The notes beneath the pieces are model-generated. The model made no database searches. It saw only the letters and a program-made list of their open reading frames with translations, and was not told the origin of the DNA. Of a stretch of DNA of 64,000 nucleotides, positions 10,506 to 11,459 are shown piece by piece. Position numbers and translations under genes: made by a program. The stretch is from Escherichia phage Mizar, in the sequence record PV714129.1; one strand, given 5' to 3'. How positions within the stretch are numbered: the stretch's first letter is position 1; each line of letters opens with the position of its first letter.

Positions 10506-10581
10506 TGGTGCCTCTAGAAAGATTTGAACTCTCACCATTAACCTTAGAACGATTATATGCTATCCATTACACTATAGAGGC
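10506..10581 (-). tRNA. tRNA-Arg (anticodon UCU)
   Basis: Manual fold: 7-bp acceptor stem GCCTCTA/TAGAGGC, anticodon loop GTTCTAA, T-arm GAGAG-TTCAAAT-CTTTC, discriminator A, encoded CCA. Confidence 0.75.
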
Positions 10582-11238
10582 AATTAAATTATTTACAATA
10601 TCTTCTTTATAAACTTCAGCATAATGAAGTTCGTATATTTCCCATCCTAATGATTTTATAATATCATGGCGTTCTTTATAATAAGGGGCCAAAATCTTTT
10701 TCTTAGGATTGGAGTAATGTTGGTTTCCATTAACTTCAATAATAATCTTTTTATCTATTAAAGCAATATCCGTGCAATACGCTCGGTTTTTAACCGGTTG
10801 GTATTCTTCAATAAATGAAATTCCGTTTTCTATTAATTTAGATTTCAAAAATTCACAAGGCACAGATTTAAATTTTGTATTTTTCTTCCAAGGATGTTTA
10901 TCGGGGTTTTCATTCAACCATTTTTTCCGAGCATTAGATATTTTTATTCTAGATTCCTCAGAGTGTTCTCTACCTAATGAAGCGGCTGACAATTTTTGTC
11001 TAGTCTCTTCCGAAATTACTACAGGAACACCAGTCTTTTTAGATACAACATACTGGTTTAAATTACCTGAAGCTATACGTGCTTTATTCATTGCTGCAAT
11101 GGCTGATTTAGAACTTTCTTTATACAATTCCAATTTAGGGTTGGATTTACACCATCTAGTGTGGTTAGCCATCCATCCTTTAGGTTTATTAGAAATATCA
11201 AATTCCATATTACAATGTTTACAAATGCTCATTACCAA
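10567..11238 (-). CDS. putative homing endonuclease (Zn-finger N-terminus, NUMOD3-like repeats, Vsr/DUF559-like PD-(D/E)xK C-terminal domain)
   Basis: CKHC...HTRWC; repeated S-x-E-x-R-x-K-(L/I)S motifs; C-terminal DIALIDKKIIIEVNGNQH pattern; sits inside the tRNA cluster as T4 segB does. Confidence 0.5.
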   Translation of the reverse strand: MVMSICKHCNMEFDISNKPKGWMANHTRWCKSNPKLELYKESSKSAIAAMNKARIASGNLNQYVVSKKTGVPVVISEETRQKLSAASLGREHSEESRIKISNARKKWLNENPDKHPWKKNTKFKSVPCEFLKSKLIENGISFIEEYQPVKNRAYCTDIALIDKKIIIEVNGNQHYSNPKKKILAPYYKERHDIIKSLGWEIYELHYAEVYKEDIVNNLIASIV

Positions 11239-11242
11239 TTAT

Positions 11243-11261
11243 CTCCTATAAAATATAGGAG
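11243..11261 (-). promoter_or_regulatory. SD-sequestering hairpin upstream of homing-endonuclease-like gene
   Basis: Perfect palindrome CTCCTATA-N3-TATAGGAG; 3' arm carries the GGAG SD about 9 nt before ATG 11238. Confidence 0.5.
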
Positions 11262-11306
11262 TATTTATTATTTGGATAGAGCACTTAATTTACTTCGTTT
11301 AAATTA

Positions 11307-11378
11307 CTGGCGCACTTGGACTCGAACCAAGATAAAGGAGTTAACAGCTCCCCGTAATAACCTTTATACGATGCACCA
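11307..11378 (-). tRNA. tRNA-Asn (anticodon GUU), CCA not encoded
   Basis: Manual fold: acceptor TGGTGCA/TGCGCCA (one G-U), anticodon loop CTGTTAA, T-arm CTTGG-TTCGAGT-CCAAG; D-stem weak. Confidence 0.6.
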
Positions 11379-11384
11379 TTTGTT

Positions 11385-11459
11385 TGGTGACCCTGGCTGG
11401 TTTCGATCCAGCTACCTATCAGTTATGAGCTGACAGCTCTCCCATTGAGCTACAGGGCC
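11385..11459 (-). tRNA. tRNA-Met (anticodon CAU; could be Ile2 if lysidine-modified)
   Basis: Manual fold: acceptor GGCCCTG/CAGGGTC, D-arm GCTC/GAGC, anticodon loop CTCATAA, T-arm GCTGG-ATCGAAA-CCAGC, encoded CCA. Confidence 0.7.

Follow-up and report, generated by a model that had tools for sequence, protein, structure and literature searches.

Analysing a 64-kb stretch of DNA (the window), we identified a tRNA locus of the T4 type which carries three tRNA genes, an open reading frame (ORF) of 221 amino acids with features of a homing endonuclease and, at its downstream end, homologs of T4 rnaD and rnaC (Table 1). ARAGORN calls exactly three tRNA genes in the window, all on the minus strand, and the Rfam model RF00005 recovers the same three with whole-window E-values of 1.8e-9 (Arg), 1e-8 (Asn) and 2.6e-10 (CAU). 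All three exceed the gathering score of 29 bits, match the model over its full length (positions 1-71 of 71) and show the anticodon in a 7-nt loop, ARAGORN arriving at the same coordinates and anticodons. This bears out the original prediction of three minus-strand tRNAs with the anticodons Arg(UCU), Asn(GUU) and CAU, for which an ARAGORN run had been proposed as a check. It was also right that CCA is encoded in two of the genes and not in tRNA-Asn, as the CAU and Arg genes end with ...ACCA and the Asn gene with ...GCGCCAG followed by TAATTT, and that the D-stem of tRNA-Asn is weak, consisting of three Watson-Crick pairs and a U13:U22 mismatch, the sole non-standard pair flagged by cmscan across the three tRNAs. 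No further element in the 64-kb window lies above the Rfam threshold, and a permissive E-value revealed neither another tRNA-like element nor a match for the rnaC/rnaD region. Plus-strand matches to 'Plastid-ycf2' (E 0.021), being the antisense of tRNA-Arg, and to 'asX2' are far under their gathering scores and were rejected. While genuine, the three tRNA genes are nothing unusual in a coliphage of the T4 type, and identical genes are already annotated in the GenBank records of HY126, AV111, WFK and WFL6982.

Table 1. Features of the tRNA locus in the order of transcription, with the basis of each assignment.
Feature	Position	Strand	Basis and remarks
CAU tRNA	11385..11459	(-)	ARAGORN Met(cat); Rfam 59.4 bits; CCA encoded, discriminator A73
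tRNA-Asn(GUU), 72 nt	11307..11378	(-)	ARAGORN Asn(gtt); Rfam 53.6 bits; CCA not encoded
ORF control region	11243..11269	(-)	Late-promoter-like motif, then predicted hairpin with Shine-Dalgarno sequence
Late-promoter-like motif AATAAATA	11262-11269	(-)	One mismatch to consensus
Predicted hairpin CTCCTATA-TTT-TATAGGAG	11243-11261	(-)	Directly after the motif; terminator scan and folding
221-aa ORF, putative free-standing homing endonuclease	10567..11232	(-)	Zinc-finger-like, NUMOD3-like and Vsr-like parts; stop inside tRNA-Arg
tRNA-Arg(UCU), 'type B' allele	10506..10581	(-)	ARAGORN Arg(tct); Rfam 56.3 bits; CCA encoded
rnaD homolog (T4 species 2)	about 10027-10146	(-)	blastn vs T4
rnaC homolog (T4 species 1)	about 9882-10020	(-)	blastn vs T4

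The locus lies between the trna.x/ipI/57B-57A block and rnaD-rnaC on the same strand, and the upstream ORFs correspond in near-identical relatives to a tail fiber chaperone, an RNA ligase, an internal head protein and a tRNA.3-like protein, which is the gene order of T4. The rnaD/rnaC region (9882..10146), for which no Rfam family exists, matches T4 at 71.0 kb with 91% identity over 306 nt (blastn, E 5e-117) and forms the downstream end of the conserved locus. Judged by its sequence, the phage itself is an RB69-like Mosigvirus and not T4. Its structural genes share 99% identity with those of LH01 and Shf125875, and it shares its backbone with RB69 and typical Mosigviruses at 97-99% identity, including an identical CAU tRNA. 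LH01 carries a CAU tRNA and a tRNA-Arg, and RB69 was reported to encode two tRNAs, including a putative lysidine tRNA-Ile (PMC1524935). The original prediction took T4 as the yardstick; the baseline of the genus is these two tRNAs, CAU and Arg. The notion of a repertoire unlike that of T4 holds in that three tRNAs stand against eight (Arg, Ile, Thr, Ser, Pro, Gly, Leu, Gln) and T4 has no tRNA-Asn; the CAU tRNA, however, is not missing from T4, since CAT is the anticodon of the annotated T4 tRNA-Ile, a gene which ARAGORN labels Met, too. Both clusters share the locus, the orientation and the order CAU tRNA, free-standing endonuclease gene, tRNA-Arg(UCU), rnaD/rnaC, the ORF filling the slot that is held by the GIY-YIG gene segB in T4 and by a segB-like gene in p000v, whereas an extra 114-aa ORF is present between tRNA-Arg and rnaD in the window and not in T4. 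The endonuclease-like ORF between tRNA-Asn and tRNA-Arg had been passed over in the original prediction.

Comparison with relatives delimits a cassette of ~880 bp in which tRNA-Asn and the 221-aa ORF are joined by a tRNA-Arg allele that is non-orthologous to the usual one. LH01 shows the arrangement CAU-ATT-Arg(A) and the window CAU-AACAAA-Asn-ORF-Arg(B), with homology picking up right after each CCA. Eight other records representing seven phages (HY126, ZQ3, AV111, WFL6982/WFK, F2, ELT1, PTE-Eco05) contain the cassette with 98.7-100% identity, while their flanks are just 75-95% identical. Two of these seven phages are Tequatroviruses, among them ELT1, which has all of the T4 tRNAs in addition to the cassette. 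The closest flank directly upstream of the CAU tRNA is found in LH01 and p000v (97.5-97.7%), both of which are without this endonuclease gene, and the CAU-Arg(A) junction occurs in 113 records compared to nine with the cassette. From these sequence comparisons we infer that tRNA-Asn and tRNA-Arg type B came with the ORF as a discrete, recently transferred cassette and not by gradual divergence.

The tRNA-Arg alleles point in the same direction. By sequence, the tRNA-Arg of the window is not an ortholog of the usual Mosigvirus tRNA-Arg (type A), which is 71% identical to E. coli argU: the type B allele shows 51% identity to the LH01 tRNA-Arg, 64% to that of T4, 75% to that of Klebsiella phage Lion_ER11 and 91% to that of PSD2001, with compensatory changes in the stems. 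Typical Mosigviruses such as LH01 differ from the window in carrying type A and in lacking tRNA-Asn and the ORF. The tRNA-Arg of DCP548 is chimeric, its 5' half being type B and its 3' half type A, which we read as a recombination junction within the tRNA-Arg gene. Two Mosigviruses have tRNA-Asn without the ORF. In G2285 the spacer belonging to the cassette persists as far as the hairpin, for which reason this phage is taken as a deletion derivative of the cassette; AV115 breaks inside the T-arm of tRNA-Asn with no downstream cassette sequence left. Of the two, it is G2285 that speaks against an ancestral tRNA-Asn in Mosigvirus that was lost in most members, and an arrival of tRNA-Asn together with the cassette appears favoured.

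The ORF is under purifying selection, with dN/dS values of 0.06-0.21 in comparisons with copies with dS above 1, and on this ground and that of 131 homologs an ORF arising by chance in AT-rich sequence was rejected. Its N-terminus carries a conserved zinc-finger-like CxxC...HxxxC motif, and its C-terminus a nuclease domain with a Vsr-like (EDxHD/DUF559) fold. Structurally, the ORF is matched best by a homing endonuclease of proven activity, the relation to I-Bth0305I, DUF559 and Vsr existing at the fold level only; searches of PDB chains with the single sequence and with the 44-member profile returned chance matches only and none to 3r3p. NUMOD3 scores 18.9 bits (E 0.0015), under the Pfam cut-off of 20.4, and DUF559 is barely over its Pfam cut-off. 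As candidate positions for the composite E, D, H, D catalytic motif of the family, E143, D155, E166 and H172 show no variation among 44 homologs, in which the R188-H-D stretch is conserved as well, and the spacing of 17 residues between D155 and H172 equals that of the catalytic D196-H213 in I-Bth0305I. We obtained no GIY-YIG match for the window ORF, placing it outside the SegB/GIY-YIG enzymes; the Vsr-like/EDxHD type thereby differs from T4 SegB, and a GIY-YIG match (E 1.3e-6, 29 bits) is obtained for the ORF that occupies this slot in p000v. With I-Bth0305I and Hef of the EDxHD family the ORF shares the domain order, a putative DNA-binding region at the N-terminus preceding the nuclease domain at the C-terminus, and it is free-standing like Hef, the T-even phage enzyme reported as a member of that family. 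It differs in its location, a tRNA cluster instead of a recA intron/intein or a position between nrd genes, and in its N-terminus, which has the CCHC zinc-finger-like motif and a NUMOD3-like stretch in place of two NUMOD2/HTH repeats. The ORF has a GC content of 31% compared to 38% for the window, it or a homolog lies within a tRNA cluster at 16 of the 17 loci examined, and in the relatives examined it is always a "hypothetical protein" or left uncalled.

The predicted hairpin preceding the ORF contains the Shine-Dalgarno sequence AGGAG within its 3' arm. An exact TATAAATA is present at the same place before all five homologs examined (PSD2001, DCP548, Lion_ER11, AB-Navy97, PSTRCR_121), and the predicted hairpin pairs the Shine-Dalgarno sequence in four of them, in PSTRCR_121 not clearly. 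When the locus was scanned for sigma-70 promoters, the 9 sites obtained did not exceed the 10.4 of shuffled sequence, and the scan was set aside. A late promoter combined with a hairpin at the ribosome-binding site is the mechanism described in the case of I-TevI-III, and both this and RNase P cleavage at tRNA-Arg have been proposed for segB (PMC2330249). In read-through transcripts, the hairpin would conceal the ribosome-binding site of the ORF, as with segB, and the late promoter would initiate inside the hairpin. The first 15 nt of tRNA-Arg double as the C-terminus of the ORF (ASIV-stop), an overlap also seen in PSD2001, DCP548 and Lion_ER11, whereas T4 segB stops 5 nt upstream of tRNA-Arg; in both systems the endonuclease mRNA would end where RNase P cuts at tRNA-Arg. 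Cleavage there would take off the last five codons and the stop codon of the ORF, which lie within tRNA-Arg. The endonuclease output is probably held low by the hairpin and RNase P.

We consider it probable that the phage is an RB69-like Mosigvirus with three functional tRNAs in which tRNA-Asn, the ORF and tRNA-Arg(B) constitute a mobile cassette driven by a putative homing endonuclease. A free-standing Vsr-like (EDxHD) enzyme would presumably cleave genomes without the cassette, either within their resident tRNA-Arg or beside it, and repair from a co-infecting cassette genome would copy the endonuclease gene together with the flanking tRNAs, displacing the resident tRNA-Arg. The three tRNAs would share one transcript and mature via host enzymes, with RNase P acting at each 5' end and tRNA-Asn receiving its CCA from the CCA-adding enzyme of the host. 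The CAU tRNA, the counterpart of T4 tRNA-Ile, would read AUA once host TilS adds lysidine, the UCU tRNA would read AGA, and the GUU tRNA would read AAU and AAC. Codon counts per 1000 in the window ORFs and in a 50-kb E. coli sample are 12.7 and 2.4 for AUA (5.2x), 7.9 and 1.5 for AGA (5.3x), 35.6 and 13.4 for AAU (2.6x), and 23.4 and 30.2 for AUG (0.8x). Since their codons are much commoner in the AT-rich phage than in E. coli, the phage tRNAs are suggested to supplement the host pool.

It is unlikely, in our estimate, that the main benefit of the tRNAs lies instead in replacing host tRNAs cut by defence nucleases, the allele swaps, i.e. the change from Arg type A to B and the gain of Asn, being selected accordingly. 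The tRNA-Tyr of phage T6 counters Septu and SegB amplifies this effect (PMC13096335), two tRNA-Arg(UCU) alleles of as little as 51% identity circulate in close relatives, and outside T4 itself the correlation between codon bias and tRNA content is weak among T4-likes (Nolan et al. 2006, PMC1524935), all of which would fit such a role. However, the sequence points to no defence system aimed at tRNA-Asn, tRNA-Arg(UCU) or tRNA-Ile2, and the classical explanation covers both AUA and AGA, the two rarest E. coli codons enriched fivefold in the phage. Codon supplementation and anti-defence roles are not mutually exclusive.

A slightly lower probability still is given to the ORF not, or no longer, being a homing endonuclease, i.e. 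to a domesticated Vsr/DUF559 nuclease acting in repair, in host DNA/RNA attack or in tRNA processing, with the cassette spreading via ordinary recombination on account of its useful tRNAs. The fold is common to the repair enzyme Vsr and to RAP-domain RNA-binding proteins, the strong purifying selection is equally expected of a domesticated gene, the anti-defence role reported for SegB is a beneficial one (PMC13096335), and a segment that is neutral or useful could also pass between co-infecting phages by ordinary homologous recombination, no endonuclease activity being required. Against this stand the structural match to a proven homing endonuclease from a family reported to include Hef, the sporadic distribution of the ORF (33 of 50,697 phage records), a cassette whose conservation across two genera far exceeds that of its flanks, the frameshifted copy in PTE-Eco05, the deletion derivatives G2285 and AV115 and the chimeric tRNA-Arg of DCP548. 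A late promoter with a Shine-Dalgarno hairpin is, moreover, typical of T4 homing endonuclease genes (PMC2330249), and GIY-YIG homing endonuclease genes hold the same slot in T4 and p000v.

Regarding tRNA-Asn, the GUU anticodon and the discriminator G73 are major identity elements for AsnRS. The window gene has both, and it shares G73 and U1-A72 with E. coli asnT. We judge it improbable that this gene is a non-functional passenger or a decaying pseudogene hitch-hiking with the cassette. The D-stem mismatch and the missing CCA would suit such decay, as would the ability of most Mosigviruses, LH01 among them, to manage without a tRNA-Asn, its fusion to rnaC in AV115 and its absence in p000v. The AU-rich D-arm TCGTATAATGGTATTAC is, however, also present in T4 tRNA-Gly, and of the eight tRNA genes in T4, four (Ile, Ser, Pro, Gln) likewise have no encoded CCA, so that neither feature is an argument against function. 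The full-length Rfam match with a single non-standard pair (score in Table 1), the AsnRS-type elements and the enrichment of AAU speak against decay, too, and over 79 nt the gene shows 100% identity to that of two Salmonella Gelderlandviruses, STP4-a and SEA1, which have no endonuclease, arguing for selection on tRNA-Asn itself. A tRNA-Asn in this cluster is known from T-even phages other than T4, and that of T2L is the preferred SegB site (PMC2330249). With its T-arm GGTTCGAGTCC, the window tRNA-Asn fits the SegB core motif GGTTCRANTCC (PMC2330249) exactly; in contrast to T2L, no Tequatrovirus tRNA-Asn is found among the matches listed for the window allele, the closest of these outside the cassette phages and Mosigvirus derivatives being Gelderlandvirus and jumbo-phage tRNA-Asn genes.

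The CAU tRNA is most likely a tRNA-Ile2, reading AUA after host lysidine modification, rather than a tRNA-Met, as suggested by its sequence identity to T4 tRNA-Ile (75%) and E. coli ileX (73%) compared to elongator metT (63%) and initiator metZ (55%). As read from the sequence, it carries C4-G69, C5-G68, U12-A23, C29-G41, A37, A38 and A73, all common to ileX, at positions reportedly serving as TilS/IleRS determinants of tRNA-Ile2 and attributed to Ikeuchi 2005 and Nureki 1994. metT departs at 4-69, 5-68 and 29-41, having U4-A69 and A5-U68 where the acceptor stem of the CAU tRNA starts with GGCCC. The gene is 100% identical in LH01, a phage without the homing endonuclease gene. Its T-loop is unusual in having A54 and A60 (GGAUCGAAACC). 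An initiator tRNA-fMet was rejected on account of the low identity to metZ, the paired G1-C72 and an anticodon stem (GUCAG/CUGAU) without a run of three G-C pairs. Extra Met decoding by an elongator or initiator tRNA-Met is thus very improbable: the Met(cat) call of ARAGORN and the tRNA-Met annotations in HY126, LH01, p000v and AV111 come with anticodon-based callers being blind to the Met and Ile2 classes, AUG is depleted and AUA enriched in the window ORFs, and the CAU tRNA, present in every tRNA-bearing T4-like genome, is predicted to be a lysidine-modified tRNA-Ile (Nolan et al. 2006, PMC1524935).

Variable tRNA sets in T4-likes, the assignment of the CAU tRNA as Ile2 and the rare-codon rationale for AUA and AGA are already published, and little is at stake for the tRNAs as such. 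Our analysis corrects two points, the "Met" label of the CAU gene, which should be read as Ile2, and the difference from close relatives, which consists of a discrete recent cassette. As a tentative extension, which we regard as possible rather than probable, the ORF may belong to a clade of Vsr-like free-standing homing endonuclease genes specialised on T4-like tRNA clusters, a second, SegB-unrelated family in the same niche which would shuttle tRNA genes across genera in phages of Escherichia, Klebsiella, Providencia and Acinetobacter. Here it would have added tRNA-Asn and swapped tRNA-Arg(UCU) for the distant allele, and the stop codon within tRNA-Arg would make RNase P maturation and an intact endonuclease mRNA mutually exclusive, a regulatory logic convergent with that of SegB; the exchange of tRNA alleles could be under the pressure of host tRNA-cleaving defences. 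If the ORF is an active endonuclease, a second homing endonuclease family unrelated to SegB would move tRNA genes between T-even genera. This would bear on the annotation of the ORF in its relatives and on how phages gain and exchange tRNAs, which are now also viewed as anti-defence cargo.

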